DNA of 64,000 bases from Candidatus Saccharimonadales bacterium (GCA_038211855.1 JBBQVE010000003.1:33907-97906), one strand, 5' to 3'. Positions 3,125-42,174 are shown, counted from the first letter of the stretch. Numbers and translations: made by a program. The notes: generated by a model not told the origin, from the sequence alone.

Positions 3125-4977
3125 AATCAGTGCTCGTTACCACCAGCTGGGACGACGGCCATATCCTGGATATGCGCTTGGCGGCACTACTCAAAAAATA
3201 TGGCTTAAAAGGTACTTTTTATGTATCACCACACGACCATGAATTCGCGGCCGATAACTTGTTGAGTGATCAGCAAGTGACCACGCTCGCGAAGTCATTT
3301 GAAATTGGTGCTCATACCATGACACACCCGCGACTGACGCAGATATCTGACAAAAAAGTCGTTAAAGAATTAGCAGACTCCAAGCAGCATCTAGAACGGG
3401 TAACGGGCACGACAATTACCGCGTTCTGCTATCCGGGTGGTAACTATGCCGCAAAGCACATTCCGCTTATAAAAAAAGTGGGCTTTGCATACGCGCGAAC
3501 CACCAAACGACTCAGCCTGAAGAGCGGTCCAGCCTACGAGGCGAGGACAACGGTCAATACCTATAATCACTATCAAGATTTGTGGAAGATTTCTAAACTG
3601 GCTCGCTTTCAGCCTCGGAAAATTTATCAGCTTTTTCACTGGGAAGAACTAGCAAAGTTTATGTTTGATAAAGTCCAAAAAGAGGGTGGCATCTTTCATC
3701 TGTGGGGGCATTCTTGGGAAGTCGACGGGCATAATGATTGGGAAAAACTGGAAGCAGTCTTCGAATATATTTCCGGTAAGAAAGACACCTCCTATGTGAC
3801 AAATGGGGAACTGCCTGCGCTGGAGACGAAAAACTTATTGATGGTTGCGCCTTATTTTCCACCACACACCGGTGGTCAAGAATTCTATGCTTATAATAAT
3901 GCGCTCCAGTTACAAAAAAAGTTCGGCTGGAACGTGACGATCGCGACTTCCGGGGGCATGGGGTGGCGAGTCAAAAAGCGTGAGCAAAACGGTCTCACCG
4001 TCTACGAGCTACCGTACTGGCATAGACTGTCGAATACGCCCATCAATCCGCTCTGGTACTTCATGATCCGAAGACTAATCACATCACGCAACATTGATGT
4101 TTTAAATACGCATGCGCCGGTTGTGGGCATGGCTGAATGTGCCCAACTGGCGGCCGGACGAGTTCCAGTCGTTTTCACCTATCACATGTTGAGCATGAAA
4201 AAAGGCGAAAAACGATTCGACTGGATTATCTGGCTCTACGAAAAACTCGTGCTGCCCTTGAGTCTCAAAAAAGCTCACCACATCATTGTTTCGTCAGATC
4301 CAGTGCGTCAAACATTTCTTAAGAATGTGTTACATAAAAGTCAGACTATTAGCACCGGCGTTGATAGTGAGCGGTTCTATCCATGTTCTAAAAGACTCGC
4401 TCATACACCGACATTGCTCTTCAACGGAACACTGAATAAAACGGGCACACACAAAGGGCTTAGCGTGTTAATTGACGCCCTGCCGCTCATCATTAAAAAA
4501 GTACCAATGGTAGATGTTTTGATTATTGGAGCTGGCGATGGACATCAAGAATATCAACAGCAGGCTGACAAGCTTGGCGTTGGACGTCACTTGGTTTTTC
4601 TGGGTACGAGGTTCGACGAAGAGCTCGTGCAGGTGTACCAATCGGCGCATATATTTGTGCAGCCGAGCCTCAATGATAGCTACCCGATGGCGCTGGTTGA
4701 GGCGCTTGCGACTGGCATGGCCTGCGTTGCCACCAGTGTTGGTGCATTGCCGGCAATCGTTGAAGATGGCGTGAATGGGCTTATAGTGCCACCCGGTGAC
4801 ACAGTGGCTTTGGCAGAAAAACTTATCTATTTGTTTGAGCATCCTGCAGTTGCTCGTAAGTTCGGTGCGGCTGGTCGCCGGAAAGCTGAAGTATCAATGT
4901 CTTGGGACAACAAAGTGGCCGCCTTAGATGTGGCACTCCATGCGGCAATCGACGGTCGGAAGGGACGTGTGCGATGA
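3121..4977 (+). CDS. Fusion protein: NodB-type polysaccharide deacetylase (N) + GT4 glycosyltransferase (C)
   Basis: The N-terminal ~230 aa carry TSWDDG, HTMTHP and CYPGG (NodB homology motifs). The remainder has APYFPPHTGGQEFY ... PSLNDSYPMALVEALATGMACVAT (GT4). GTG 3121 overlaps the upstream TGA. Confidence 0.8.
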   Translation: MKSVLVTTSWDDGHILDMRLAALLKKYGLKGTFYVSPHDHEFAADNLLSDQQVTTLAKSFEIGAHTMTHPRLTQISDKKVVKELADSKQHLERVTGTTITAFCYPGGNYAAKHIPLIKKVGFAYARTTKRLSLKSGPAYEARTTVNTYNHYQDLWKISKLARFQPRKIYQLFHWEELAKFMFDKVQKEGGIFHLWGHSWEVDGHNDWEKLEAVFEYISGKKDTSYVTNGELPALETKNLLMVAPYFPPHTGGQEFYAYNNALQLQKKFGWNVTIATSGGMGWRVKKREQNGLTVYELPYWHRLSNTPINPLWYFMIRRLITSRNIDVLNTHAPVVGMAECAQLAAGRVPVVFTYHMLSMKKGEKRFDWIIWLYEKLVLPLSLKKAHHIIVSSDPVRQTFLKNVLHKSQTISTGVDSERFYPCSKRLAHTPTLLFNGTLNKTGTHKGLSVLIDALPLIIKKVPMVDVLIIGAGDGHQEYQQQADKLGVGRHLVFLGTRFDEELVQVYQSAHIFVQPSLNDSYPMALVEALATGMACVATSVGALPAIVEDGVNGLIVPPGDTVALAEKLIYLFEHPAVARKFGAAGRRKAEVSMSWDNKVAALDVALHAAIDGRKGRVR

Positions 4978-7900
4978 AGCAAAACAAGCCCAGTATTATT
5001 CAGATTACTCCCTATTATCCACCGCACACCGGTGGCATGGAAAACGTGGTACGCGAGCTGTCTGGGCAACTCACAAAGGATGGGTTTTCGGTGAGTGTGT
5101 ACACCTCGGCAATCGCCGATACGACCGAATCGACAGTGATTGATAATTTTTCGGTCCTGCGTTTGAAAGCCACAGAAGTTGCGCATACACCACTCATTTG
5201 GCGGCTACTACCCAAGTTATGGCGTGCTCCAAAAAACTCGGTATTTCACATTCATCTCGCCATTGCAGGCATCCCCGAGGTTGCTTTGCTAGTCGCCAAA
5301 CTACGACATATCCCTACCGTCTTACACTTTCACCTCGATGTTGATCCGTCGGGGCATTTTGGCTTCTTACTGAAACTCTATAAGAAAACACTCTTTACGT
5401 GGACGCTTAGAACAGGTGACTGCGTGTTGGTGTTTTCGGAAGATCAGGCCGAATTTCTAGCGAAGAAATATGGTGTATTACCAGAAAAAATCCGCATTCT
5501 GCCAAATGGTGTCGGCGATGCATTCTTTATGCCAAAGAAGCGGATAGCACCCGTTAAAAAGCTCGATCTTCTGTATGTTGGCCGCTTGCACAAACAAAAA
5601 CGTGTTGATCGCATCATTGAAGCCATGGCTATGGTCAAGGCAGATTGTCAATTAACAATCATTGGTGACGGTGATGACCGTGCTGCCTTAGAAGCGCTCT
5701 CGAGCAGCTTAAAACTTTGCAATGTGCACTTTATGGGCAAGAAGACAGGTATCGATTTACGTGCCTACTATCGTCGTGCAGACGTCTTGCTGCTGCCATC
5801 CGACAAGGAGGGTATGTCCCTGGTTATGCTGGAGGCTTTGGCGGCCGGCCTGCCGATTATCGCCTCTGATGTACCCGGCATCAAAGAACACTTAACAGGC
5901 ACAAGTATTCTGGTCAAGAAGCCTTCAGCCACAACCTTCGCCCTCGCAATCGACGATCTTTATAAAAATCGACGTCTCTATATTCCAAGACTTTCCCTTG
6001 CAAGCAGAGCCTTGGCGAGGCGTTTTTCCTGGCAATCAGTGACCACTCAACTCGAAGAGGTATATAATTCGTTGCCGCAACAAAAGTTGACAAAACCAAC
6101 AAGCAAAAGAGGAAAAATTAAATTGTTTGTACTTCTATCACTCTGGTGGTTGGCTATCATTACACTTCGCACGCTACCCAGTGCTCCTGAAGTGGTGATT
6201 AATACGCTCGGCTTTAGTTTTTTACTGATTGTACCAGGTTATCTGACCATCATGTGTCTACGTCTAAAACAAGTGAATCCGCTGGCAAAAGTAATCATGG
6301 CCGTTGGTGTATCGCTGTTTGAACTCATGCTCATTGGACTGCTCGGCAACACCATTCTGCAGTGGCTTGGTGTAAAACGTCCGCTTGATACACCGTTTCT
6401 TCTTGGGGAGGTAAGTCTCTTATTGGCTGGTCTTTATTGTGTCGTATGGTGGCGAGCTGGTTCAGTGAAGTTTGACATAAAAAATAAGCTTTTGGCGCTG
6501 TTGCCGAGTCGCCTGGACGTCTTCTTTGCGGCCGTGCCACTGTTGTTTGTTTTATTGAGTGTCATCGGTGCAGTCAGCCAGAATAATGGTGGGAGTAACC
6601 TCTCGACAGTTATCGCCTTGGTTGCTATCACGGTTTATAGCGCAGCCCTAATTTTGAAGAGTAGAAAATTAAGTGATAACACGTTCATGGTGGCGCTATT
6701 CCTAATAGCACTATCGCTGCTTTTCATGACGAGTTTGCGTGGTTGGTTCACGACTGGACACGATATTCAACGTGAGTTTGGTGTCTTTGAGTTGGCCAAG
6801 AATAGCGGTGTCTGGAAGATACAAAGTTTCCGCGATCCTTATAATGCCTGCCTCAGCATTACCCTGTTGCCAACAATGTTCTTTAACGTATTGAAATCGT
6901 TTGACCCGTACATCTACAAAGTATTTTTTCAGATTATTTTTGCGCTAACGCCGCCGCTCTTGTTTATTTTCACTCGTAAATGGGCTTCGCGACCATTGTC
7001 GTATACCTCTGTGCTTTATTTTGTGGCGTTCCCAACTTTCTTTACTGATATGCCGATGCTCAATAGGCAGGAAATTGCCTTGCTGTTTTTTGCGCTGATG
7101 CTGTTTACCGCCTTCCAAGACTCTGTCAGTATGCGTGTGCGGCGAAATCTCTTTTTGGTGTTTGCAGCCGGTTTAATTTTGTCGCATTACTCGACCACCT
7201 ATTCGGTTGTCATCATATTGTTTATAAGCGTCGTATGCCGCCCGATTCTTCTGCGGTTAGCAAGGCCTCTAAAGGATAAGCAGGCCTTTCTACAGAGTGC
7301 CTTAAAGTCATTTCAGTCGACATCAAACGAATTGAAGCGCATTACGTTTACTTCTGTAGTGTTGATTATTGTCGGTAGTTTTTTGTGGACGAGTGTGCTG
7401 ACAAACACAGGGAATAATACGGGGAGGGTGATTAAAGAAACTTTTATTGCGGCGCTGCATAGTCTCAAAGAAGACGTACCAAAGTCGAACGAGACGAAGT
7501 ACAACTTGCTATCATATGAGCCGGCTGACCTACAGAAGGAGCTTGGTATATATAACAATAAAATCGTTGAGCCCGCTCGCCAGCGAGACAGTGCATCCTA
7601 TTATCCGGCGTCAGACTATAAGCAAGAGTCACTGACTATTTCGACTTCAAATATATTGCCGCTGACTACGTTCGGAAGATTTTTAAAAGCGCACGGCATT
7701 CCGGTTGAAAGCGTTAATACGATCACCAGGCAAGGGTTTGCGAAGATCTTGCAGCTGCTCATTTTGATTGGCTTACTGTATGTACTCTTTAGACGCGCTT
7801 TGTTGCGGTCGCTCGACACTGAATATATGACGCTGGTGGTCGGCTGTGTATTGTTTGTGGTGTTGCAGGTTGTGTTGCCAGTGATATCAGTGGAATATGG

Positions 7901-22985: not shown

Positions 22986-23060
22986 CGCGGGATAGAGCAG
23001 TGGCAGCTCGTGTGGCTCATAACCACAAGGTCGCAGGTTCGAGTCCTGCTCCCGCTACCA
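22986..23060 (+). tRNA. tRNA-Met (anticodon CAU), initiator-like, CCA encoded
   Basis: CGCGGGATAGAGCAGTGGCAGCTCGTGTGGCTCATAACCACAAGGTCGCAGGTTCGAGTCCTGCTCCCGCTACCA forms a 75-nt cloverleaf. The unpaired 1:72 position (C:U) and overall similarity to bacterial tRNA-fMet (CGCGGG...GCTCATAACC...CCCGCAACCA) suggest initiator identity. Confidence 0.85.
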
Positions 23061-23076
23061 AGTTTGAATAACAGAT

Positions 23077-23106
23077 AGAGATTGGTTCCAAAACCAGTCT
23101 CTTTTT
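23077..23106 (+). terminator. Hairpin terminator after tRNA-fMet (part of the repeated L module)
   Basis: AGAGATTGG-ttccaaaa-CCAGTCTCT + TTTT. The 34-nt block 23077-23110 is identical to 24562-24595. Confidence 0.6.
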
Positions 23107-23229
23107 GATTTGATAGTTAATTCACCTCTGTTATTTAAGTTCGAGTCCTGTTTGGTCTTTTTGCTCATGCTTGCATTAGACTCTATGCACGTTGCAAGAT
23201 ATATATAAGACTAAATTCGAGGAGAAGTT

Positions 23230-24423
23230 ATGCCAGAGCTAATGAGCCCAGAGACTCAGGAAGATTTTAAACGGACAATAGGTCGCGTTGAAGGGGTAAC
23301 CGGCTATGAAAGACCAGCAGCATTTGCTCTGGGATTAGCCACTATTGAGGGTGAGGGCGAAGACAAAAAAGTCATCGAAGTACAATACACCCGCAGAAAC
23401 TACGCAGAAAACTTTGGGACAGCTGCAGTATTGGCTGTAGCTACACAACAATGGACAGGCTTAGAGACAGGAGAATTTTTGCTGAGACCTCATCAATTAG
23501 ATACTGTGACTCGTTTGTTTAGGCCATTTTTCGAAAATGGTCTAGTCTTACCAGGACATGCTAATATCGACACACTGATGGCGATGAGAGATGTGCAAGT
23601 TGGCGGATTATTTCCTAAATCAGGTGCGGATAATATCTCAAACCCACGTGTACCAATCTTAGGTGTAATACGCAGCTGGGATGACGAACCAGTCAGTGTT
23701 GCCGACATCTTTCTAAGACTCTATGCACTCTCTGACCGGCACCGCTTGCCAAACACAGCAAATATTGTGCCTGGACGCGATTTTCCAAAGCTACCAAACA
23801 CAGTGATGAGCGAGTCACTTGGTACGTTTAGCGTTGACAGATGGAATGCAATGTCGGAAAGAATCGCCTTTAGGGGCTTATCAACTGCCGTTCGTGGATT
23901 GGATAAATTCCCACGTATGACAGACCATGTGGTGCCAACGGGTGTTAGAATTGCCGACCCAAGCAGAGTACGTCTCGGAGCGCATCTTGGTTCTGGTACG
24001 ACCGTAATGCATGAAGGCTTTGCTAACTTTAACGCTGGTACAGTAGGCGCAAGTATGGTTGAAGGTAGAATCAGCGCTGGCGTACTTGTAGGTGAAGGTT
24101 CCGACGTGGGCGGCGGTGCATCAATTATGGGCACTATGTCAGGCGGTGGTAAAGAAGTCATTAGTATAGGAGAAAAATGTCTCTTAGAGGCTAATAGCGG
24201 AATAGGAATATCATTAGGAGATAACTGTAGAGTCGAAGCAGGCACATATGTAAAGTCGACCACTAAGGTCAAACTACCAAACGGCGACTGGGTAAAAGCT
24301 GATAGACTGTCAGGCCAAGATAATATGATGCTACGCAGAAGTTCTGTCACTGGCGAAGTAGAACTGCTACCAAACGTAGGTACAGAATGGGGCGGTCTTA
24401 ACTCAGTGCTTCATACTAACTAG
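23230..24423 (+). CDS. dapD: 2,3,4,5-tetrahydropyridine-2,6-dicarboxylate N-succinyltransferase, long (Pseudomonas-type) form
   Basis: DKFPRMTDHVVPTGVRIADPSRVRLGAHLGSGTTVMHEGFANFNAGTVGASMVEGRISAGVLVGEGSDVGGGASIMGTMSGGGKEVISIGEKCLLEANSGIGISLGD is a hexapeptide-repeat domain. It is near-colinear with my recollection of long-form DapD. GAGGAG SD. Confidence 0.8.
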   Translation: MPELMSPETQEDFKRTIGRVEGVTGYERPAAFALGLATIEGEGEDKKVIEVQYTRRNYAENFGTAAVLAVATQQWTGLETGEFLLRPHQLDTVTRLFRPFFENGLVLPGHANIDTLMAMRDVQVGGLFPKSGADNISNPRVPILGVIRSWDDEPVSVADIFLRLYALSDRHRLPNTANIVPGRDFPKLPNTVMSESLGTFSVDRWNAMSERIAFRGLSTAVRGLDKFPRMTDHVVPTGVRIADPSRVRLGAHLGSGTTVMHEGFANFNAGTVGASMVEGRISAGVLVGEGSDVGGGASIMGTMSGGGKEVISIGEKCLLEANSGIGISLGDNCRVEAGTYVKSTTKVKLPNGDWVKADRLSGQDNMMLRRSSVTGEVELLPNVGTEWGGLNSVLHTN

Positions 24424-24435
24424 TGTTTTAAAGTT

Positions 24436-24546
24436 CTAGTGTCGTGCGGTAGAGTAAACAACTCCTGCTTGAACCCTATAAAGTTGTAACCATCGAACTA
24501 ACTCGCTAAAGATAAGGTTCCAATTCGAATGTACAAGGGCTACCAA
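24436..24546 (-). repeat. Tail unit U-fMet-1 (att-like module)
   Basis: On the minus strand, TTGGTAGCC (mimic of the tRNA CCA end) opens the frame LVALVHSNWNLIFSELVRWLQLYRVQAGVVYSTARH*. 19/36 aa identical to the unit at 26230-26340, with no indels. Confidence 0.6.
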
Positions 24547-24561
24547 GTGAAAATAAAAGAG

Positions 24562-24591
24562 AGAGATTGGTTCCAAAACCAGTCTCTTTTT
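24562..24591 (+). terminator. Second copy of the L-module hairpin
   Basis: Identical to 23077-23106. Confidence 0.55.
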
Positions 24592-24806
24592 GATTACAAC
24601 GGACTTCCGGGTATATCCCCAGTTCTAAGATTTTAATGAGAAACCTGGGCATCGAGACATGAAACAGTGTTGTTAGTAGGGAAACACTTTATGCACACGG
24701 AAGCCTTAAGTATAGACTAATTGTCAATTTTTCGCAGTAAGCTATGTTATATGATGACCGAATTATTTAGCATATATTGAGAGTACTTAATAATAAGAAA
24801 GCTGAA

Positions 24807-35969: not shown

Positions 35970-36054
35970 TGCTGTAGTATAACGGCCTTAGTCTGGCTTA
36001 AGCAAAAGCCACTTGCTACAGGGGTCGTCGTAGTGTAAAATACATCTCTAATAC

Positions 36055-37026
36055 ATGGAACTATTCAATATTGTGCTTGAGACGGTCCTGTTGGTGGGGG
36101 CCTCGGCCATTTGTTCGGGGCTCAACCTCTCTTTGATGGCGCTCGAAGTGTCTGACTTGCAGCGTAAGTCCCGCGGCGGCAGCAAACAAGCCAAGAGAAT
36201 TCTGCCACTGCGCAAAAACAGTCATTTGAGCCTGGCGAGTATCCTGCTAACAAACGTCGCGGTCATATCGGCTACATCATTATCACTCGAGCATCACTTT
36301 AATGGGTTGATCGCAGGCATTATTGGAACGCTTTTAATCGTCGTATTTGGAGAGATTTTTCCACAAGCTATTTTTGTTCGTCAGGCGTTGCGCATCACTG
36401 CTTTTTTTGTGCCTGTTTTGAAATTTATGATCATTATTACTTATCCGATTTCAAAGCCGTTGCAGCTGCTACTCGATGCTCTGTTCGGGCCAGAACAGGC
36501 TCATTTGCATAGCCGCCGTGATATAGGTTTGATTTTGTCCGAGCAGGCCACCGACGAAGGCAGTGAACTTGACGAAGACGAGGTGGAAATTATGCGCGGG
36601 GCACTCTCGCTCAGTCAAAAGCGGGTTCGCGACATCACGACCGACATACGTCATGTGTTCTGGGTGACACCGAATACGGTGGTAGATGCTGCAAAAATTG
36701 ATGAGATTAAAGACGAAAATTGGAGCCGTATTCCTATCTTCAACGAAGAACGCACCGAGACATACGGCGTGTTACTCATGAAAGATTTAGTCGATATCGA
36801 CTTTGATGAGCGTAGCTATATGGTCAAAGAACTGCCGAATAAGCCTACTAAAGTCATTGGCAGCATGACGGCGCTGGACACTTTGTTCCGTAAGTTTATT
36901 GGAGCTCACTCGCACCTCATGCCAGTTGAGCGCGATGATAAGATTATCGGCATCGTGACGATTGAAGATTTGATTGAAGAAATCCTTGGCCATGAAATCG
37001 AAGACGAATCCGACCACGAGTCGTAG
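36055..37026 (+). CDS. CNNM/CorB-like transporter (DUF21 membrane domain + CBS pair)
   Basis: Four N-terminal TM helices (DUF21), then EDEVEIMRGALSLSQKRVRDIMT-like and two CBS motifs. No CorC_HlyC C-terminal domain. Confidence 0.8.
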   Translation: MELFNIVLETVLLVGASAICSGLNLSLMALEVSDLQRKSRGGSKQAKRILPLRKNSHLSLASILLTNVAVISATSLSLEHHFNGLIAGIIGTLLIVVFGEIFPQAIFVRQALRITAFFVPVLKFMIIITYPISKPLQLLLDALFGPEQAHLHSRRDIGLILSEQATDEGSELDEDEVEIMRGALSLSQKRVRDITTDIRHVFWVTPNTVVDAAKIDEIKDENWSRIPIFNEERTETYGVLLMKDLVDIDFDERSYMVKELPNKPTKVIGSMTALDTLFRKFIGAHSHLMPVERDDKIIGIVTIEDLIEEILGHEIEDESDHES

Positions 37027-37040
37027 TATATAATCGGGGT

Positions 37041-37478
37041 ATGAAGACAATCGTGATTTGCGCGAGCGTGAGTTTCTATAGGCAAGCCATAGAAATCGAA
37101 GAGCAAGTCAAAGGGCAGGGCTACAAAGTCATCGTGCCAAAAATTGCATACGCCATGCGTGACGCAAACGATTTCGAAGTCAGTCACTACAAAACTTGGT
37201 TTGCCGATGCCAACGAATATCACAAAAAGGGCGAACTCATGCGGGCACATTTTGATAGGATCGCAGAAGGTGACGCGGTACTCGTGCTTAACTTTGAGAA
37301 GCACGGTGTGCAGAATTACATTGGCGGAAACGTGCTGATGGAAATGGGGATTGCGTTTTACTTGGAGAAACCGGTTATTATCCTGAATGAAGTTCCCAAA
37401 GATTCAGCTTTTTTGGAAGAACTACTCGGCTTTGAGCCTACAGTGCTACACGGCAAACTCGCTGACCTAAAAATTTAG
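37041..37478 (+). CDS. Nucleoside 2-deoxyribosyltransferase-like Rossmann protein (tentative)
   Basis: 145 aa. MKTIVICASVSF...DAVLVLNFEKHGVQNYIGGNVLMEMGIAFYLEKPVIIL resembles the NDT-like fold pattern. The assignment is weak. Confidence 0.4.
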   Translation: MKTIVICASVSFYRQAIEIEEQVKGQGYKVIVPKIAYAMRDANDFEVSHYKTWFADANEYHKKGELMRAHFDRIAEGDAVLVLNFEKHGVQNYIGGNVLMEMGIAFYLEKPVIILNEVPKDSAFLEELLGFEPTVLHGKLADLKI

Positions 37479-37526
37479 CACGAGACCTAGTAAAAAACAG
37501 GGGTGCATGGTATAATTTTTCGACGA

Positions 37527-37603
37527 GGCGATGTAGCTCAGTTGGTTAGAGCACAGGACTCATAAGCCTGGGGTCACAAGTTCAAATCTTGTCATCGCTA
37601 CCA
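37527..37603 (+). tRNA. tRNA-Met (anticodon CAU), elongator-like, CCA encoded
   Basis: GGCGATGTAGCTCAGTTGGTTAGAGCACAGGACTCATAAGCCTGGGGTCACAAGTTCAAATCTTGTCATCGCTACCA forms a 77-nt cloverleaf. It closely resembles my recollection of E. coli elongator tRNA-Met. TGGTATAAT -10 at 37508-37516. Confidence 0.9.
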
Positions 37604-39101
37604 AATCAGAATTTATAGCCGATTCGTCGGCTATTTTCTTTAATAACAGATAAGAGTCTGTCAATTCAACGGTTCCAAAACCGGTTTCAAGGTCATACGG
37701 TACTCCAGACGGAAAAAGTAACTTCTGAATAGCTTGTCTACTTCTTGTGCTAGCTCGGTTCCAAAAAATATCTGGTGTTTTAATAAAACTCATAGCATCG
37801 TCGACTATTTGTTCTTTCTCTTTTACGTAGCTGTCCATTTCTGTTTTTTCTTGTTCTAGTAGTGCTATCTTATCGTCAATGCGTCTTAGTTGTTCGTCTC
37901 TATCATCTTCCGTAATCTTGTCTGCAATAAACTTATTATTAGTCGAGAATCTCAGCTCTTTATGCACTTCAATATCTCGATTCACTTGTGCCGCTGTTTC
38001 GAGCGCTTTACCGTATTCATCATTCCACTCCCTTAAAACCACTATCTTAAATAGTTTGGCAATCCCTTGATTTATCGGGCGTTTACTTTCCAGTAGTTCT
38101 CTAAAATGTTTGTGGACCATATCCGCATCTTGGCTAGATTTCTTGTGAGTTACAGATTTACGACAGGTTTTTCTTGGACAGTGATACATGGAGTAGTGGC
38201 CACCGTTACCATGAGGCGTGCTGGCAGAAAGGGGTAGGCTGCAGTTCGTACATAGCAGAGTGCCTCTTAATGGATAAAAGTCATCACCTTTAATAACAAA
38301 TACTCGTTTGTCTTTATTGATTATTTCTATATTCTTATATATCGTTTCCTCGCCTACTAAAGGTGTATGTCTACCTCTAATTATCTTGGTACTTAGTTTA
38401 TTTTTGGTATAACCAGCATAGAATAAGTTCACTAAAATTATCTTCATAGCATCATGGGCTTTTGGTTTTCCAGATTTTGTCTTTATACCATTATCAAATG
38501 CCATTCGAGAAATATCGGCTACACTGTAGGTTCCTTTTGAAAACTCAGTAAGTAATACTCGAATCTTGTCTGCATAATCAGGGTCGGGTACAACCGACCT
38601 GTTGACCTTTTTGTAGCCGATTGTAGCGCTGTGCGGCCATTCTCCTTGCTCTACACGCATTCTCATGCCTGTAAGGCTTCTAATAGCTCGTATTTCGTTA
38701 TCAAACTGTGCTGCAGCAGCTAGAATAGCCTCCAAGAACCTACCGACAGGGTCATCATCTATTGGCTCAGTGACTGAAATGATTTTAATGTCATATTTTG
38801 CTAAGGCAACCTTGATTCCGTAGTAGTCACCAAGATTTCTTGCTAGTCTGTCAATTTTCCAGATATAAAGTACATCAATTTTGCCTTTGTTATCTCTAAC
38901 AAATTGAAGCATACGCTGTAGCTCTGTGCGGTCAATAAACTTGGCCGATTCGCCTTCTTCCCTGAAAATGTGCGAATCAGGAACGGGTACTTCCTGCTTA
39001 CGGGCGAAGAGCTTACACTCTTTTTCTTGATTATCAAGACTAAGGCGTTTTTCGGCCTGTTCTTTTGTGGATACTCTTGTATAGATAATTCCTAGACCCA
39101 T
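37560..39101 (-). CDS. Large serine recombinase (integrase); last 14 codons are encoded by the antisense of tRNA-Met
   Basis: GIIYTRVSTKEQ (catalytic Ser), DRLARN, recombinase domain, Cys-rich zinc ribbon (CTNCSLPL...YHCPRKTC) and a coiled-coil region. The ORF ends ...SDLVAMTRFELVTPGL*, with the stop (TGA) in the tRNA anticodon loop. TATAAT lies 6 nt upstream of ATG 39101. Confidence 0.9.
   Translation of the reverse strand: MGLGIIYTRVSTKEQAEKRLSLDNQEKECKLFARKQEVPVPDSHIFREEGESAKFIDRTELQRMLQFVRDNKGKIDVLYIWKIDRLARNLGDYYGIKVALAKYDIKIISVTEPIDDDPVGRFLEAILAAAAQFDNEIRAIRSLTGMRMRVEQGEWPHSATIGYKKVNRSVVPDPDYADKIRVLLTEFSKGTYSVADISRMAFDNGIKTKSGKPKAHDAMKIILVNLFYAGYTKNKLSTKIIRGRHTPLVGEETIYKNIEIINKDKRVFVIKGDDFYPLRGTLLCTNCSLPLSASTPHGNGGHYSMYHCPRKTCRKSVTHKKSSQDADMVHKHFRELLESKRPINQGIAKLFKIVVLREWNDEYGKALETAAQVNRDIEVHKELRFSTNNKFIADKITEDDRDEQLRRIDDKIALLEQEKTEMDSYVKEKEQIVDDAMSFIKTPDIFWNRASTRSRQAIQKLLFPSGVPYDLETGFGTVELTDSYLLLKKIADESAINSDLVAMTRFELVTPGL
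37615..37641 (+). terminator. tRNA-Met terminator hairpin located inside the recombinase coding region
   Basis: ATAGCCGA-ttcg-TCGGCTAT + TTTCTTT, 12 nt after the CCA end. On the minus strand it encodes ...KKIADESAIN.... Confidence 0.5.
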
Positions 39102-39147
39102 GGAACCATTATACGACTAATATTTACAGGTTATAAGTGTTGATATT

Positions 39148-39300
39148 TTATTTTGGAACTGTTTGTTGTACGAAGTCTTTTGCAATTACTTCTAGGAGAG
39201 AAATAATATCCGCGATTTGCGCATCGGAAAACTCCTTATACGGTTTGCCGAGAAGCTTTCGTGCCTCTTTAATTGTAATTATTGGCGAATCTTGAGACAC
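39148..39300 (-). CDS. Candidate 50-aa protein between recombinase and DUF5681-like gene
   Basis: GTG start. Product VSQDSPIITIKEARKLLGKPYKEFSDAQIADIISLLEVIAKDFVQQTVPK looks protein-like. However, there is no SD and it starts right after a terminator hairpin (39303-39330). Confidence 0.3.
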   Translation of the reverse strand: MSQDSPIITIKEARKLLGKPYKEFSDAQIADIISLLEVIAKDFVQQTVPK

Positions 39301-39386
39301 AAAAGCCCTTCACAAAGTTAGAAGGGCTCTAGATACAAAACGGCCTATTAAGCCTATTGTATACTATCTAGACATAATACTAAAGC

Positions 39387-39710
39387 TTATTTTGTAGTAG
39401 TGTATCTTCTATGTACAATGATAAGTTTCTTATCCTCTTCCTCTCTAACCTGACCACTGTTGCCATAGCCGTGTCTTATGAGTAGTTCAGTAGCTCTTAA
39501 ATCTCCACGAATCGCCCTAACTATCATTCCCTTAATAATTGCTTCTATTGGCGTACCCAATGTTTCTTTTCCAAGAAGTGTATAACCAATTTCTACATCT
39601 TCGAGGAATTCTTTGATGTAACTGGAAACATGCTTAGAGCCTTTAGGTTTGCTGCCGCGTCGTATATCATATCCTTTTTTGAAAGGTTTAAGGTTTTGTT
39701 GATTTGCCAT
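39387..39710 (-). CDS. DUF5681-like phage/plasmid-associated protein
   Basis: The N-terminal NLKPFKKGYDIRRGSKPKGSK resembles the N..L.PFKKG....GRPKG motif of DUF5681. The rest is unassigned. Confidence 0.5.
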   Translation of the reverse strand: MANQQNLKPFKKGYDIRRGSKPKGSKHVSSYIKEFLEDVEIGYTLLGKETLGTPIEAIIKGMIVRAIRGDLRATELLIRHGYGNSGQVREEEDKKLIIVHRRYTTTK

Positions 39711-39828
39711 AATCTCACTGTATTCTCGCAGTAATTATTAATAAAAAAGCAACAAAGTGCTTGGCTAAGTTACCTAGGTAAACTATAGCACTCCTTGTCC
39801 AAGTCATCCGAAGGAGGTATGCTTAATT

Positions 39829-39934
39829 TGTCTTAAGCTAGCAGTAGTTTTCTAATTGCACATCAGTGCGGTTTTGCCATTAAATGGCATCCGTACAAAA
39901 GCAGTTAGGCAAAACCTACTGTTGGCTTAAGACA
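39829..39934. repeat. Nested inverted repeats in the divergent intergenic region of the element
   Basis: Outer arms TGTCTTAAGCTAGCAGTAG (39829-39847) / CTACTGTTGGCTTAAGACA (39916-39934), 17/19 complementary. Inner arms GGTTTTGCC (39870-78) / GGCAAAACC (39908-16). Preceded by AAGGAGG and a 5-codon mini-ORF (39819-39836). Confidence 0.5.
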
Positions 39935-39970
39935 CCTAGTACGGGTGCCTTTTTAGTTTAGGAGCATTTT

Positions 39971-40627
39971 ATGGAAAAACTGTTCGACGTAGAAGAACTT
40001 CATAAGACTTATCGTAAGAGAAAAATTAAAAAAGTTCTTCTTACTTTAGCTGCAGTTTCGCTTTTAATCGTAGTATCAAATAAGTATGTTCCAAGATTTA
40101 GTAATACAAGGTCTTCTTTAATTACTCCTACACAGACATCTGCCGAACCTGTATCTGTATTAGGTGAGAATAATACTAGAGTTAGTGGTTCTACATACAA
40201 TCCAGGACTTTCAAAAGACGAAGCCTTGGCAAAGCAGCAAGCCGCTCAGGCGCAACAACAACTTGATGCTGCAAACCAAAATCTAAAAAATGTATATCAG
40301 AATATTGGAAATACGGATTCGTATACTCCAACTACCGACTACTCATCAACTACTAGCAATAACACCTACAGTCCTCCAGGGGTAACAAATACACCGAAAC
40401 CAGTTTGCACGCCAAACCCACAGTTAGCTGGTTTAAGCGCTTCAATAGTTCAGGCTCAAGGTCAAATATCGGCTTTTAATGATAAGCTCAACACTCCTGG
40501 CGATATGTATGGCTACAATGCCTCTGGCTATGCTAATTATCGTGCGCAAGAAGGGCAGAGGTTACAGTCACAACTCAGCCAGCTACAAAGTCAATACAAC
40601 CAGCTAAAGGCACAGAGTAACTGTTAA
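39971..40627 (+). CDS. Membrane-anchored Q/N/S/T-rich hypothetical protein
   Basis: GGAG SD. TM LLTLAAVSLLIVV. Low-complexity coiled-coil-like Q-rich segments. Confidence 0.5.
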   Translation: MEKLFDVEELHKTYRKRKIKKVLLTLAAVSLLIVVSNKYVPRFSNTRSSLITPTQTSAEPVSVLGENNTRVSGSTYNPGLSKDEALAKQQAAQAQQQLDAANQNLKNVYQNIGNTDSYTPTTDYSSTTSNNTYSPPGVTNTPKPVCTPNPQLAGLSASIVQAQGQISAFNDKLNTPGDMYGYNASGYANYRAQEGQRLQSQLSQLQSQYNQLKAQSNC

Positions 40628-40710
40628 CCGTAAGTATCAAAATTACAATTTATTATATGGGCTAATAGCAAAAGTATGACGTATTAAATCTCCTAATGTA
40701 CTGAAGAAAT

Positions 40711-41019
40711 CTACTTAGCAGGAATTAGTGCAAAAGAGTCTGATGCTACCTTAAGCCCACTCTCTTTAATATAGTCTAGTTTCTCTTTAGCAGGCTTTTC
40801 TCTCAAGTTAATAGGCAGTCGAGAATTCAAATAGTAGAAAAGTTCATCACTTTCTGCGGTTTTAGAGTTGTTCGCTAGTGGAATAAAGCCGACCTGCTTC
40901 CAATAATTTGTAGGAATATTATCCGCTAATTCAAAAACAAACTTACCATTAAACACGACCGTTCCAATGGTCATATTTAATAATTCATCTTTTAAAATAA
41001 ATGTTACTGGCTTGCTCAC
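40711..41019 (-). CDS. HipS-like protein (resembles HipA N-terminal subdomain), encoded downstream of the kinase
   Basis: 102 aa. GTG start 3 nt after the kinase stop with GAGGGG SD. The segments ...IGTVVFNGKFVFE..., ...LFYYLNSRLP... and ...ASDSFALIPAK parallel my recollection of the HipA N-domain (vGeL...F.Y / fF.NLLP / DsvGAvtLIP). Inference. Confidence 0.5.
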   Translation of the reverse strand: MSKPVTFILKDELLNMTIGTVVFNGKFVFELADNIPTNYWKQVGFIPLANNSKTAESDELFYYLNSRLPINLREKPAKEKLDYIKESGLKVASDSFALIPAK

Positions 41020-41022
41020 GGT

Positions 41023-41985
41023 CTACCCCTCATAGATGCTTCTTAGTCTAGTGTAACGCATTATTAGGGACTTATATAGGAGTTTTCTTCGCCTTGTATC
41101 ATATTCTAAAATCTCCAAGCTAGGCATTTTAATCACTAAACCTGCGAGTTCCAGCATATCCATGTCTTTAACTCTTTTAAGGCTCTTCTTGAATCTTCTG
41201 CCCCAAGATGAGTTAGATTTTAAATGCTGTTCAATTAGTTCAAACATATTTGTTTTCTCTCTCTTTGAATTAAGGATAAATCCGTACTTACTGTTTTCAA
41301 CGTATCTCTTAAGTCTCTCTTCATCGTTCGTCATATTATCTATATCAGCATCACTTAACTCAAACATCAGACTGCTTCCATGGTCAAACAAAGGGGTAAA
41401 ATAACGTAAAGAAACTAACCTCTGTCGGTCAACTAAAATCTGCTGTCTATATTTTTGATAGGAGCAAATACCCCAGTTTTCGTGGTGTCTATCCATATTA
41501 CCTATCAGTGCATCAAATACGACCATATCTGCATAACTTTGCAGCAGGTCATCTGCAGCGTAGTACTTACCCTTTATTTTTTCTTCTATAGCTTCAAGTC
41601 TTAGTGGTTCAGATGGTGTTTCAACGATAGCTGCACCATAGGTTGTTTCTACCTTTTTAGGGAATATATTTCTAGCAAAGCTGCCCACAGGCTTCCAATT
41701 TCTTGGCAATATTCCTGGGTAACGGCTTCGCAAGACACTCTCTAGCCTTTTGGGCGTGGTTTTGATTGTTACTAACTGTGCATTCAATCCCATCAATTCT
41801 GCGATGTGTGACGCCAAGCACTCAGCCCAAACCTCGCGAGGTGTATGTGTGTACGTTTTGAAGAAAAAGATTTGTTTCTTATCTTTATGATAAAACGTAA
41901 GCCGAGGCCTACTACCGCCAACAACTTCAGCATGAACCGTACTATATCGATTCATATCGAGTTCGTTGACTGTAAAGTGTTTCAT
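41023..41985 (-). CDS. HipA-family serine/threonine kinase lacking the N-terminal subdomain (HipT-like)
   Basis: VVFDALIGNMDRHHENWG (catalytic loop, compare IGATDGHAKNFS), TPLFDHGSS (DxG-like) and GGSRPRL (Gly-rich loop). Confidence 0.75.
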   Translation of the reverse strand: MKHFTVNELDMNRYSTVHAEVVGGSRPRLTFYHKDKKQIFFFKTYTHTPREVWAECLASHIAELMGLNAQLVTIKTTPKRLESVLRSRYPGILPRNWKPVGSFARNIFPKKVETTYGAAIVETPSEPLRLEAIEEKIKGKYYAADDLLQSYADMVVFDALIGNMDRHHENWGICSYQKYRQQILVDRQRLVSLRYFTPLFDHGSSLMFELSDADIDNMTNDEERLKRYVENSKYGFILNSKREKTNMFELIEQHLKSNSSWGRRFKKSLKRVKDMDMLELAGLVIKMPSLEILEYDTRRRKLLYKSLIMRYTRLRSIYEG

Positions 41986-42031
41986 ATCCTACTAACAGTA
42001 TAGTCTAAGGCTATAGTTCAAAGCCTTCCGC

Positions 42032-42136
42032 TCACACTTTAACAGTAGTTTCTTCCCTTACTGTATTAACTATCTGCCACATGGCTATCAGCTCTCGCTT
42101 TATTTGGTTCCAATTCGTTCCTATCACGCCTACCAT
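42032..42136 (-). repeat. Tail unit U-Met-1 (right end of the integrative element; predicted alternative recombinase C-terminus)
   Basis: The minus-strand frame from ATGGTAGGC reads MVGVIGTNWNQIKRELIAMWQIVNTVREETTVKV*. It is in the same frame relative to TGGTA as the recombinase ...SDLVA. Confidence 0.6.
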
Positions 42137-42138
42137 AT

Positions 42139-42170
42139 AAAAAGCACCTGCTTAGACACAGGTGCTTTTT
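42139..42170. terminator. Bidirectional terminator
   Basis: AAAAAGCACCTG-8 nt-CAGGTGCTTTTT. It lies directly after the CCTACCA core and directly after the stop of 42175..42726. Confidence 0.7.
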
Positions 42171-42174
42171 ATTT

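Follow-up and report, generated by a model that had tools for sequence, protein, structure and literature searches.

A small mobile element at a tRNA-Met gene of a Saccharibacteria genome, with attP placed by sequence comparison inside its own serine recombinase gene

What kind of element has inserted directly 3' of tRNA-Met in the genome of a member of the Saccharibacteria, and why does the open reading frame (ORF) of its recombinase run on into that tRNA gene? The genome hosts a mobile element of about 4.5 kb, inserted at the final six bases of the gene, which we studied in a window, i.e. the whole stretch of DNA that was analysed, of 64,000 nucleotides. An initial annotation had described a minimal integrative island beside a tRNA, neither prophage nor ICE. 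That description stands but it missed the main point, namely that attP is inside the large serine recombinase gene. Here we describe the boundaries, the recombinase, the relatives and the cargo of the element, and weigh the readings that these data allow.

Boundaries and composition of the element

The AT-rich block recognized initially was borne out by sliding G+C content and has exact ends, since CTACCA flanks it at both sides (Table 1). G+C content is 0.36-0.40 over 37.5-42.25 kb and 0.45-0.52 on either side. With 0.386 the element has the lowest value among all 4.5-kb stretches of the window, stretches of that size outside it showing a minimum of 0.418 and a mean of 0.474 (sd 0.023). GC3 ranges from 0.28 to 0.38 in the six element genes versus 0.41-0.55 in the flanking genes. 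The element's composition is clearly foreign; uniform composition, which would have refuted the earlier description, was found neither by sliding GC nor by GC3, and the hand counts on which that description was based (13/60, 19/60 and 33/60) were exact on recount.

Table 1. Features of the element and its attachment sites, with window coordinates
Feature	Coordinates	Strand	Basis or remark
Integrative element	37604-42135		4,532 bp; GC 0.386; AT-rich, at 3' end of tRNA-Met
tRNA-Met (CAT, elongator type)	37527..37603	+	ARAGORN; Rfam tRNA 69.7 bits
Large serine recombinase, integrated form, 513 aa	37560..39101	-	ORF list; Pfam, PHROG, NCBIfam
attL core CTACCA	37598..37603	+	tRNA nucleotides 71-76 including CCA end
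P' arm of element	37604..37660	+	Inside recombinase coding sequence; carries replacement tRNA terminator hairpin
Conserved TATAAT and GGTTCC ahead of recombinase ATG	39102..39113	-	Sequence
p50, conserved 50-aa protein	39148..39300	-	Directly upstream of recombinase
107-aa DUF5681-like cargo protein	39387..39710	-	Pfam 21.0 bits, cut-off 27.5
Strongly folding intergenic stretch	39829..39947	+	Inverted repeat I1; upstream of Q-rich gene
218-aa Q/N/S-rich protein, one N-terminal hydrophobic segment	39971..40627	+	ORF translation
102-aa kinase partner	40711..41019	-	Starts 3 nt downstream of kinase gene
HipA/CtkA-like Ser/Thr kinase, 320 aa	41023..41985	-	PADLOC PDC-M03A
Detached recombinase 3' end, 33 codons and stop, VGVIGTNWNQIKRELIAMWQIVNTVREETTVKV*	42032..42133	-	In-silico excision; also P arm of attR
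attR core CTACCA	42130..42135	+	att comparison
B' arm, original tRNA terminator	42136..42172	+	Hairpin 42137-42172; inverted repeat I20; terminator scan

The tRNA-Met gene is intact and forms the B arm of attL. The comparison with sister genomes proposed in the initial annotation was run, and the two closest relatives, L001 and L002, have the same tRNA-Met (100% and 99% identity, respectively) with an empty site. CTACCA is the sole sequence common to attL and attR in the window, and is also found in the attB of both these relatives and in the attP of the free circles described below, the left arm of which matches the left arm of the window attR and the right arm that of attL. All four types of att site were thus reconstructed, each containing CTACCA, albeit with attP taken from relatives at 70-74% identity, attB from species-level relatives, and without activity data. 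We refer to CTACCA as the shared core, without resolution of the crossover dinucleotide. The B' arm, the stem of which is complementary at 14/14 positions, is now located 3' of a convergent histidine phosphatase gene. Neither an empty site nor a free circle was recovered for this exact element. Logan contig L045 (sample SRR19962015) ends exactly at 42130, but a de Bruijn contig end at the attR core is only a hint of polymorphism and no proof.

Searches with Pfam, PHROGs, NCBIfam and PADLOC identified no capsid, terminase, replication or conjugation family in the element, as had been claimed. Portal, tail and lysis families were absent among the six element proteins, as were type IV secretion genes, a coupling protein and a relaxase from the element (Pfam, PHROGs and NCBIfam).

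The recombinase and the position of attP

Judged by its profile matches and predicted structure, the protein is a large serine recombinase with the full domain set, in agreement with the initial assignment. Pfam Resolvase (PF00239) matches residues 5-155 (3.8e-29, 102 bits, cut-off 23.3), Pfam Recombinase (PF07508) matches residues 177-261 (22.7 bits, cut-off 21.1), and PHROG 95 'integrase' was hit at 3.6e-70. Ser11 and zinc-ribbon residues C287, C308 and C313 are invariant in alignments of 30 and of 40 homologues, C284 is invariant in the former and nearly so in the latter. A catalytic domain, the long alpha-E helix, recombinase domain, zinc ribbon and coiled coil are all seen in the AlphaFold prediction; in the model of homologue P0007 long antiparallel helices (345-392 and 398-441) are located between zinc-ribbon strands. 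The nearest solved relative is the catalytic domain of TP901-1 integrase (2.6e-12). Identity as a Ccr protein was rejected because NCBIfam CcrB reaches just 89 of the 900 bits set as its cut-off; CcrC and CcrA scored 58 (900) and 42 (700), respectively.

Sequence comparison places attP inside the gene of this enzyme, 33 codons ahead of the stop, and this would be why the recombinase ORF overlaps both the tRNA and the tRNA terminator. The C-terminus of the integrated ORF consists of 12 residues, AMTRFELVTPGL, which together with a TGA stop are read antisense from the host tRNA gene; this TGA overlaps the anticodon, in the anticodon loop. What had been called the right edge of the island contains the detached last 33 codons of the gene. 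In-silico joining of the ends yields a 533-aa ORF that is collinear with P0007 over the full length (74% identity), 22/33 tail residues being identical and the stop position the same. By blastn, window segments 42036-42135 and 37604-39123 are contiguous in circle L212. Since the integrase gene would span its own attP, insertion would therefore swap the tail of the enzyme for a read-through into the tRNA.

The two configurations are both found among homologues. The tRNA-antisense terminal peptide is present in 97/111 full-length homologues, which represent integrated copies carried by contigs as long as 1 Mb, and the free-form tail in five, every one on a contig of at most 6.4 kb. The recombinases of three related elements (L208, L210 and L211) overlap tRNA-Met by the same 44 nt. 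Five tail segments were compared, each open and exactly 33 codons long, with pN/pS values between 0.28 and 0.86: the window tail shows 0.34-0.45 against other elements, whereas constraint is weak in the tails of L210 and L211 (0.6-0.86). The free-form tail is predicted to consist of a flexible linker and one amphipathic helix, modelled by AlphaFold at moderate confidence (pLDDT ~62-66).

It could be argued that the overlap is merely an accidental open antisense frame, the real gene ending earlier and attP being located outside. Indeed, a stop-free run of 14 antisense tRNA codons is unsurprising when taken alone, as we estimate its chance at ~0.5. However, the ORF of the circles runs 33 conserved codons beyond the core, the tails of the two circles differ with a pN/pS of 0.28, i.e. 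codons vary synonymously while the protein sequence is conserved, and all of 40 homologues keep Val501, the residue that the core encodes. An accidental frame is therefore scarcely credible.

The initial annotation had noted a tRNA terminator hairpin within the recombinase coding sequence. Terminator scan and ORF list confirm this replacement terminator, whose stem spans 37615-37634 and precedes a T-run. In an alignment of six elements 4/8 pairs change on both sides and 87.5% of cells are paired, and the observed score is attained by 0/500 shuffles. The hairpin is thus maintained inside coding sequence by compensatory changes. The TATAAT reported 6 nt upstream of the recombinase ATG is found at 39108-39113 on the minus strand, and the arrangement TATAAT/TATACT-N-GGTTCC-ATG is kept in six elements (window, L208, L210, L211 and both circles). 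Such a conserved -10-like box 6-7 nt before the ATG would fit a leaderless or near-leaderless mRNA, for which it is a candidate -10 box with inferred function only.

Free circles, relatives and cargo

Five contigs, obtained from five samples with three assemblers, represent one identical circle of 4,499 bp, its closure being defined by terminal overlaps equal to the assembler k (141, 141, 55, 30 and 30). It encodes a recombinase homologue 74% identical to the joined 533-aa form of the window. A second circle of the same family measures 6,325 bp. No phage, replication or conjugation genes were found in either, and together with the 6-bp core repeat these circles support the earlier view of a minimal island that is neither prophage nor ICE. 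Tandem arrays could be an alternative source of circular assemblies.

The circles raise the possibility that the free form is the main state, that is, a plasmid-like replicon copied by the host or by an unrecognized Rep, with the recombinase providing occasional parking in the chromosome. The 4,499-bp closed cycle, and not a chromosomal insertion, recurs in five samples, the five free-form recombinases all come from small contigs, and the related island L208 has a Replic_Relax gene. Such an episome is nevertheless unlikely, given that Pfam and PHROGs detect no replication family in the element of the window or in the two circles, and that the large majority of the homologues, as counted above, are integrated.

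Directly upstream of the recombinase, the 50-aa ORF that had been considered doubtful turns out to be real: every related element examined (L208-L219), as well as the distant tRNA-Glu element L049, has a homologue at this position, with 49-64% identity. In P0074 it is fused to the recombinase. No Pfam family matches p50, and its conserved adjacency makes it no more than a candidate for a directionality factor or a regulator. No cargo is common to the elements, that of relatives including defence genes, whereas p50 and recombinase are conserved; the conserved core is a two-gene module with exchangeable cargo.

These relatives also bear on the question whether the element is a fixed and immobile remnant of an old integration, vertically inherited with a recombinase that is decaying or co-opted. 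Elements L208, L210 and L211 occupy the same tRNA-Met, the tails of the latter two look relaxed, P0001 is a singleton cluster, and the exact element has yielded neither empty site nor circle. Yet its detached tail is still open, of free-form length and similar to that of P0007, its composition is still clearly foreign, and the sites of the closest relatives are empty. Moreover, recombinases are 74-76% identical across genomes in which TilS shows 38-45% and MurJ ~59-62% identity, and the cargo is wholly different from element to element. We consider a remnant decidedly unlikely.

The cargo of the window element could be assigned in part only. The DUF5681-like assignment rests on a weak match that exists but remains below the Pfam cut-off; the protein matches PHROG 26239, of unknown function, and was not found in the related elements examined. 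The intergenic stretch that follows forms a long hairpin and then a small terminator-like hairpin at 39933-39947 (terminator scan). The fold of 39715-39975 has z = -5.65, with 0/200 shuffles as stable, but the stretch corresponds to no Rfam family and is not conserved in other elements. For the 218-aa Q-rich protein no family was found in four libraries (Pfam, PHROGs, PADLOC and NCBIfam). As regards the proposed HipA-like kinase pair, the kinase itself is supported by PADLOC PDC-M03A (PDLC04340; 5.5e-35, residues 9-319 of 320), whereas Pfam HipA_C remains below its cut-off (23.3 versus 30.5 bits) and the partner matches PDC-M03B (PDLC04349) only weakly (8.8e-4, 61/232 profile positions). The nearest solved relative of the kinase is CtkA (2.7e-4); the partner has no relative among solved structures. 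HipBA and HipBST were rejected given the HipA_C score and the absence of a HipB-type HTH gene beside the pair. The kinase may be a defence or toxin cargo, as a candidate inferred from sequence.

Decay of a prophage or phage satellite, with loss of its structural genes, would account for the fact that the best PHROG family of the recombinase is annotated as phage integrase and that a few cargo proteins match PHROGs of unknown function. It would not account for complete free forms of just 4.5 and 6.3 kb, nor for the absence of capsid, portal, terminase, tail and lysis families in four libraries. The best IMG/VR match has 29% identity, bar a 184-residue fragment at 41%, and the best of 50,697 GenBank phage records has 27%. 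We regard this origin as highly improbable.

Proposed integration mechanism and known systems

We consider it probable that 37604-42135 is an integrated small Saccharibacteria element with attP within its serine recombinase gene, which is split by integration. The free form would be a circle encoding the 533-aa recombinase, as observed for close relatives only. Inferred from the comparison of att sites, the enzyme would exchange strands within CTACCA of the tRNA-Met gene, leaving the tRNA intact with a new, element-borne terminator hairpin, while the old terminator would come to lie at the opposite end of the element. As read directly from the sequence, the recombinase gene is cut in two, with the last 33 codons 4.5 kb away at attR and the remaining ORF continuing 12 codons antisense through the tRNA to the TGA in the anticodon loop, giving 513 aa. 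The two forms may differ in activity, and such a difference, combined with head-on transcription of the tRNA, would stabilize the integrated state; p50 might act as excision factor, and circles might spread passively, for instance by natural transformation. These last steps are inferred and have not been shown.

Regarding cargo, the element resembles PDC-M03 in that a kinase matching PDC-M03A is directly followed by a small gene, although PDC-M03 itself is a candidate system only and the match of the partner is poor. With HipA, HipT and CtkA kinases it shares a weak HipA_C and CtkA signature, but the pair lacks the adjacent HipB-like HTH gene of HipA-family systems and its HipA_C score is below cut-off.

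Serine recombinases acting as site-specific integrases are also known from phiRSM, cited as having a resolvase-like integrase, and from TIGER-predicted S-Int islands, 14/297 of which are in tRNA or tmRNA genes (PMC7192596). An ORF-spanning attP is not described for the islands in that paper, and the phiRSM enzyme is without the large C-terminal domain present in the element recombinase. Tycheposons of marine cyanobacteria are likewise small, tRNA-associated, cargo-carrying and integrative. They mostly have tyrosine recombinases and many have replication genes, a large serine recombinase being reported in 27/937 tycheposons and cryptic elements (bioRxiv 10.1101/2020.12.28.424599). Their hosts belong to another phylum and, as far as the available part of that preprint goes, a gene-spanning attP is not described for them.

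The element enzyme has the class and domain order of phage large serine integrases such as those of phiC31, Bxb1, A118/LI and TP901-1, and likewise has short att sites that share a small core only. It is at most 27% identical to any annotated phage integrase, and the element differs by its target at the 3' end of a tRNA, attP inside the ORF and a 4.5-kb carrier without phage genes. Characterized serine integrases are not known to have attP anywhere but outside int, and a literature search did not find a description of a serine integrase gene that spans attP.

SCC elements (SCCmec, with CcrA, CcrB or CcrC) are non-replicating and non-conjugating staphylococcal cassettes with variable cargo and large serine recombinases, which insert at the 3' end of the conserved rlmH/orfX gene without inactivating it. 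The similarity of NCBIfam CcrB to the window recombinase is weak, and the element differs from SCC in its tRNA target, single recombinase, 5-10x smaller size and a recombinase gene that is split on integration.

Integration at a tRNA gene changes the integrase ORF of myxophage Mx8 from intP to intX and splits that of archaeal viruses of the SSV1 type, such that prophage and free form encode different integrase proteins. Both enzymes are tyrosine recombinases with a long identity between attP and attB. The element would follow the same logic, with attP inside the integrase gene, but with a serine recombinase, a 6-bp core and an exchange limited to the last 33 residues.

Composition, boundaries and free forms

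Sliding GC content is 0.36-0.40 over approximately 37.5-42.25 kb versus 0.45-0.52 outside, and GC3 is 0.28-0.38 in the six element genes versus 0.41-0.55 in flanking genes. With a GC of 0.386 the element (37604-42135) is the lowest among all 4.5-kb stretches of the 64-kb window; among non-overlapping stretches the minimum is 0.418 and the mean 0.474 (sd 0.023). This confirms the AT-rich block claimed by the initial annotation, whose three hand-made G+C counts were exact. From the flanks, the organism belongs to the Saccharibacteria (Saccharimonadales). The best GTDB relatives show 75% protein identity (CNNM-type gene), and the closest ones are no longer syntenic downstream of the tRNA. GTDB-representative sister genomes (closest at ~75% protein identity) provided attB and no exact empty site, and an Rfam scan of 36.5-43 kb matched the tRNA alone.

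All att sites were aligned on the tRNA-sense strand, with attB taken from the empty tRNA-Met sites of two relatives (L001 and L002), attP from circular contigs, and attL and attR from the window and from two relatives with an integrated element (L210 and L211). CTACCA, the last six bases of the tRNA, is present in every site aligned. Homology links attP to attR in the left arm and to attL in the right arm, the latter with a hairpin and the motif AATAACAGATAAG. In the window, attL and attR have only CTACCA in common (37598-37603 and 42130-42135), and by blastn 42036-42135 and 37604-39123 are contiguous in a circle. The element therefore covers 37604-42135, i.e. 4,532 bp, similar to the 4,499 bp of a free circle. 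Judging from this alignment, strand exchange must take place inside CTACCA, the dinucleotide not being determined. Two observations had pointed to a crossover in the anticodon loop, with the whole tRNA 3' half supplied by the element: the position of the ORF stop, in the anticodon, and the end of Logan contig L044, at 37562. This reading was rejected since the att table puts the exchange at CTACCA, the tRNA 3' end; the end of L044 fits a 30-mer (37533-37562) common to another tRNA in a k=31 graph.

Six contigs, each from a different sample, encode P0007, a homologous recombinase. Five of these, assembled by MEGAHIT (k=141), a SPAdes-type assembler (k=55) and Logan (k=31), have a terminal overlap equal to the assembler's k and all collapse to one 4,499-bp circle without mismatches. 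A second homologue, P0016, lies on a 6,325-bp circle. Both circles carry the 50-aa protein p50, a 533/534-aa recombinase and unrelated cargo; replication, capsid and transfer families were not detected in them. On comparative evidence alone, the boundaries, the common core, the location of attP inside the recombinase gene and the existence of free circles in close relatives can be regarded as demonstrated. Core, boundaries and circles support the earlier reading of the block as an integrative island.

Sample SRR19962015 holds the same strain at 100% identity, in Logan contigs L045 (window 45707-42130) and L044 (35998-37562). L045, which is 100% identical to the right flank, stops exactly at 42130, the first base of the attR core, where a mixture of attR and attB would create a branch. 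Such an end is consistent with a population in which some sites are occupied and others empty; it is a single hint and the alternative branch was not retrieved. Exact-protein look-ups recovered no attB or attP contig from the sample, in which flanks and element are present and fragmented.

In all five relatives compared (L001, L002, L208, L210 and L211) tRNA-Met points away from the tilS-ftsH-murJ-lepA block, whereas in the window it points towards it. The segment CNNM gene-p145-tRNA-element-old terminator (about 36,000-42,172) is therefore inverted in the window, with a breakpoint within ~3 bp of the old tRNA terminator (42172/42175).

Coordinates of the element, its genes and associated features in the window
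Feature	Coordinates	Strand	Remarks
CNNM-type gene	36055-37026
tRNA-Met(CAT)	37527-37603	+	Intact (ARAGORN, Rfam)
Large serine recombinase, 513 aa	37560-39101	-	Pfam Resolvase 3.8e-29; Recombinase above cut-off; PHROG 95 at 3.6e-70
GGTTCC	39102-39107	-	Directly before recombinase ATG
p50, 50 aa	39148-39300	-	No family match
107-aa protein			DUF5681 match, sub-threshold (Pfam)
218-aa Q-rich protein			No family match
320-aa kinase			PADLOC PDC-M03A 5.5e-35; Pfam HipA_C below cut-off; closest solved relative CtkA
102-aa gene			3 nt downstream of kinase; weak PDC-M03B match, 8.8e-4
Intergenic structure	39715-39975	+	-85.4 kcal/mol; z = -5.65 vs shuffled sequence
Detached recombinase tail	42032-42133	-	33 codons
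Former tRNA terminator	42137-42172		At attR
tRNA-fMet, initiator-type	22986-23060		Second site, without recombinase (region 22986-24600)
DapD-like gene	23230-24423		Beside tRNA-fMet; GC3 low, 0.369
34-bp terminator, two exact copies	23077-23110, 24563-24596
8-mer GGTTCCAA	23084, 24516, 24569, 37671, 37757, 42106	+	All within two tRNA-Met-associated sites

The recombinase gene across tRNA and attP

The recombinase is a bona fide large serine recombinase (LSR). Its scores against NCBIfam Ccr and XisF are far below cut-offs, it is at most 27% identical to any annotated phage or plasmid integrase, and IMG/VR contains no close relative. On the antisense strand, the ORF extends across the tRNA terminator hairpin and 44 nt at the tRNA's 3' end, and its stop is a TGA overlapping the tRNA-Met anticodon; the hairpin (37615-37634) and its T-run thus lie within the coding sequence, as the initial annotation had stated. 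The same 44-nt overlap with the tRNA-Met gene is found on the long contigs of L208, L210 and L211. A homology search retrieved >100 full-length homologues (40-76% identity), typically ending in ...VAASGLEPLTPGL, ...VAATGIEPVTLGL or ...VAATRIELVTSGL. These C-termini are antisense-strand translations of a tRNA T-arm, and a tRNA-antisense C-terminus occurs in 97 of the 111 homologues of at least 480 aa.

A conserved stretch of ~130 bp closes the islands of the window, L210 (two copies) and L211, ending in ...GGTTCCAATTCG(N11)CCTACCA. Its translation from the recombinase strand, with an in-frame junction at the Leu-Val codons (TTG GTA), is VGVIGTNWNQIKRELIAMWQIVNTVREETTVKV followed by a stop. This matches the true C-termini of five homologues of 532-534 aa, among which P0007 ends in ...LVGMVESNWNQIKRELITMWQIVNEIRKESPVTV; the free-form tail is restricted to these five, all on contigs of 3.5-6.4 kb. 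Excised in silico, the element has a 533-aa ORF that is collinear with P0007 over its full length (74% identity) and shares its stop position. Tails have exactly 33 codons and are open in all five cases examined. Their pN/pS is 0.28 between circles, 0.34-0.45 between the window and others, and 0.6-0.86 in pairs with L210 or L211, window excluded. From these values and the open 33-codon tails, the tail appears to be constrained at the protein level, besides any DNA-site constraint, and the window's tail copy looks functional by these sequence measures. The region 42105-42135 had also been considered as a displaced, decayed tRNA 3' half; it lacks T-arm pairing and corresponds to the in-frame recombinase tail.

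An AlphaFold model of P0007 (mean pLDDT 81.6) has the standard LSR domains, followed by a low-confidence, core-encoded linker and a single helix (507-528) of moderate confidence. The 584-aa homologue P0103 has APTGLEPV twice, in two tRNA-antisense segments, suggesting that a first tRNA end is followed downstream by a tandem or relic one.

Cargo and related sites

The initial gene inventory was essentially right, with DUF5681 and HipA weaker as formal family assignments given their sub-threshold Pfam matches. The absence of capsid, terminase, replication and conjugation families was borne out with every profile library searched. The 50-aa ORF, earlier called doubtful, is better supported than claimed, since all related elements examined have it immediately 5' of the recombinase, even beside a 34%-identical relative that targets tRNA-Glu. 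In the 572-aa homologue P0074 it is fused in frame to the recombinase N-terminus. Sequence comparison of related elements shows a conserved p50-recombinase module and variable cargo: a type VI retron-like reverse transcriptase, PemK and nSTAND genes in L208, a PDC-M68B/LmuB-like ATPase and an MC6 protein in L210, and AbiU2 in the L218 circle. The kinase pair fits this pattern of defence cargo and is a candidate defence or toxin module, with its function not established. These elements may provide a route for defence-gene traffic between ~1 Mb genomes, with retron-like reverse transcriptase, AbiU2, LmuB-like ATPase and PDC-M03-like kinase as cargo.

L210 has two near-identical ~130-bp tail-segment copies 1.9 kb apart (original coordinates ~3,940-4,040 and ~5,860-5,940), with CTACCA after the outer copy only and genes for a 294-aa protein and a DUF5677-like protein in between. 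The doubling suggests that cargo modules accrete at the element's far end. The intergenic structure of the window comprises a long hairpin (39829-39934) and then a small terminator-like hairpin. It has no Rfam match, was not found in related elements and could represent a small RNA, or a structure that regulates the Q-rich gene.

At the tRNA-fMet site a degenerate recombinase-tail copy comes after the DapD-like gene, GGTTCCAATTCG... from 24516, reading LVALVHSNWNLIFSEL..., with CTACCA at 24540-24545. The site resembles a remnant of a related element, or a gene that was captured. The 8-mer GGTTCCAA has six copies in the window versus 1.6 expected, a number reached in one of 100 shuffles, and GGTTCC is found both before the recombinase ATG and at the p50 end in 6/6 elements compared. 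The motif may bind a protein.

Peptides such as ...RGIEPLLPG in proteins ~63-65% identical to the window's recombinase point to tRNA-Glu as a second target in the close family. There are also distant LSRs (28-34% identical) whose ORFs end inside an antisense tRNA gene: Glu (L048, L049, L053), Val (L050), Ile (L057), Leu (L062), Trp (L063), Gln (L126) and Ala (L140, an IMG/VR contig). No useful long direct repeats turned up at the distal ends of these elements. Metagenome and IMG/VR scans with the recombinase alignment retrieved mainly recombinases of at most 34% identity, the patterns being too generic, and did reveal that tRNA-internal ends occur in further LSRs.

Consequences of integration and comparison with known systems

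Upon integration the tRNA-Met sequence is unchanged through its CCA end and its terminator is replaced by the element hairpin. Compensatory substitutions preserve this hairpin across six elements: both sides changed in 4/8 pairs and 87.5% of cells are paired; none of 500 shuffles reaches the observed score, and slid controls give 23-46%. The former tRNA terminator stays at attR, where it faces the 3' end of a convergent histidine phosphatase gene. In the recombinase gene, 12 codons supplied by the host take the place of the last 33.

The 533-aa and 513-aa recombinases are inferred to have unlike activity. It is possible, and in our estimate rather doubtful, that the C-terminal exchange forms a built-in state switch of a serine integrase; its functional meaning remains open. 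The free 533-aa form, with its amphipathic tail helix, would then be integration-proficient, and the 513-aa form with its host-encoded tail would be inert or excise only with p50, the putative directionality factor. In the integrated state recombinase expression might be dampened by head-on tRNA transcription. The window's copy may still be able to excise, and the spread of the element is presumed to be passive. If the switch were true, directionality would be set by an element editing its own recombinase gene and not solely by a separate directionality factor, and the design would extend to the wider LSR group ending antisense in tRNA-Glu, Val, Ile, Leu, Trp, Gln and Ala.

Serine integrases are thought to avoid tRNA genes. 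A survey of serine-integrase islands found tRNA/tmRNA sites for 14 of 297 only, and described tRNA use by these enzymes as previously unreported and in need of experimental proof (PMC7192596). Large serine recombinases also occur in a small minority of tycheposons, which are otherwise tyrosine-recombinase elements (bioRxiv 10.1101/2020.12.28.424599). For the present family all four att site types, free circles and over 100 members are available, which opens tRNA use by serine integrases to direct testing. Serine integrases are the main tools of large-cargo genome engineering, and genetic tools are scarce in CPR/Patescibacteria. The attB, the 3' end of tRNA-Met, is identical across the Saccharibacteria relatives examined; together with a natural ~4.5-kb circle that has a defined attP, this makes the element a potential tool, a ready blueprint for a CPR/Patescibacteria integration vector.

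Integrase genes that span attP are known from Mx8 and SSV1-type viruses, both of which use tyrosine recombinases, and to our knowledge two state-tied isoforms from such a gene have been described for tyrosine recombinases only. Our literature searches found no description of a serine integrase with an ORF spanning attP. Such a gene would represent new control logic, with two enzyme isoforms tied to the state of the element. The element is one member of a large family, so far undescribed, of serine-integrase mini-elements that target tRNA genes and have a gene-spanning attP. Among non-replicative cassettes moved by an LSR into the 3' end of a housekeeping gene, the SCC cassettes come nearest.
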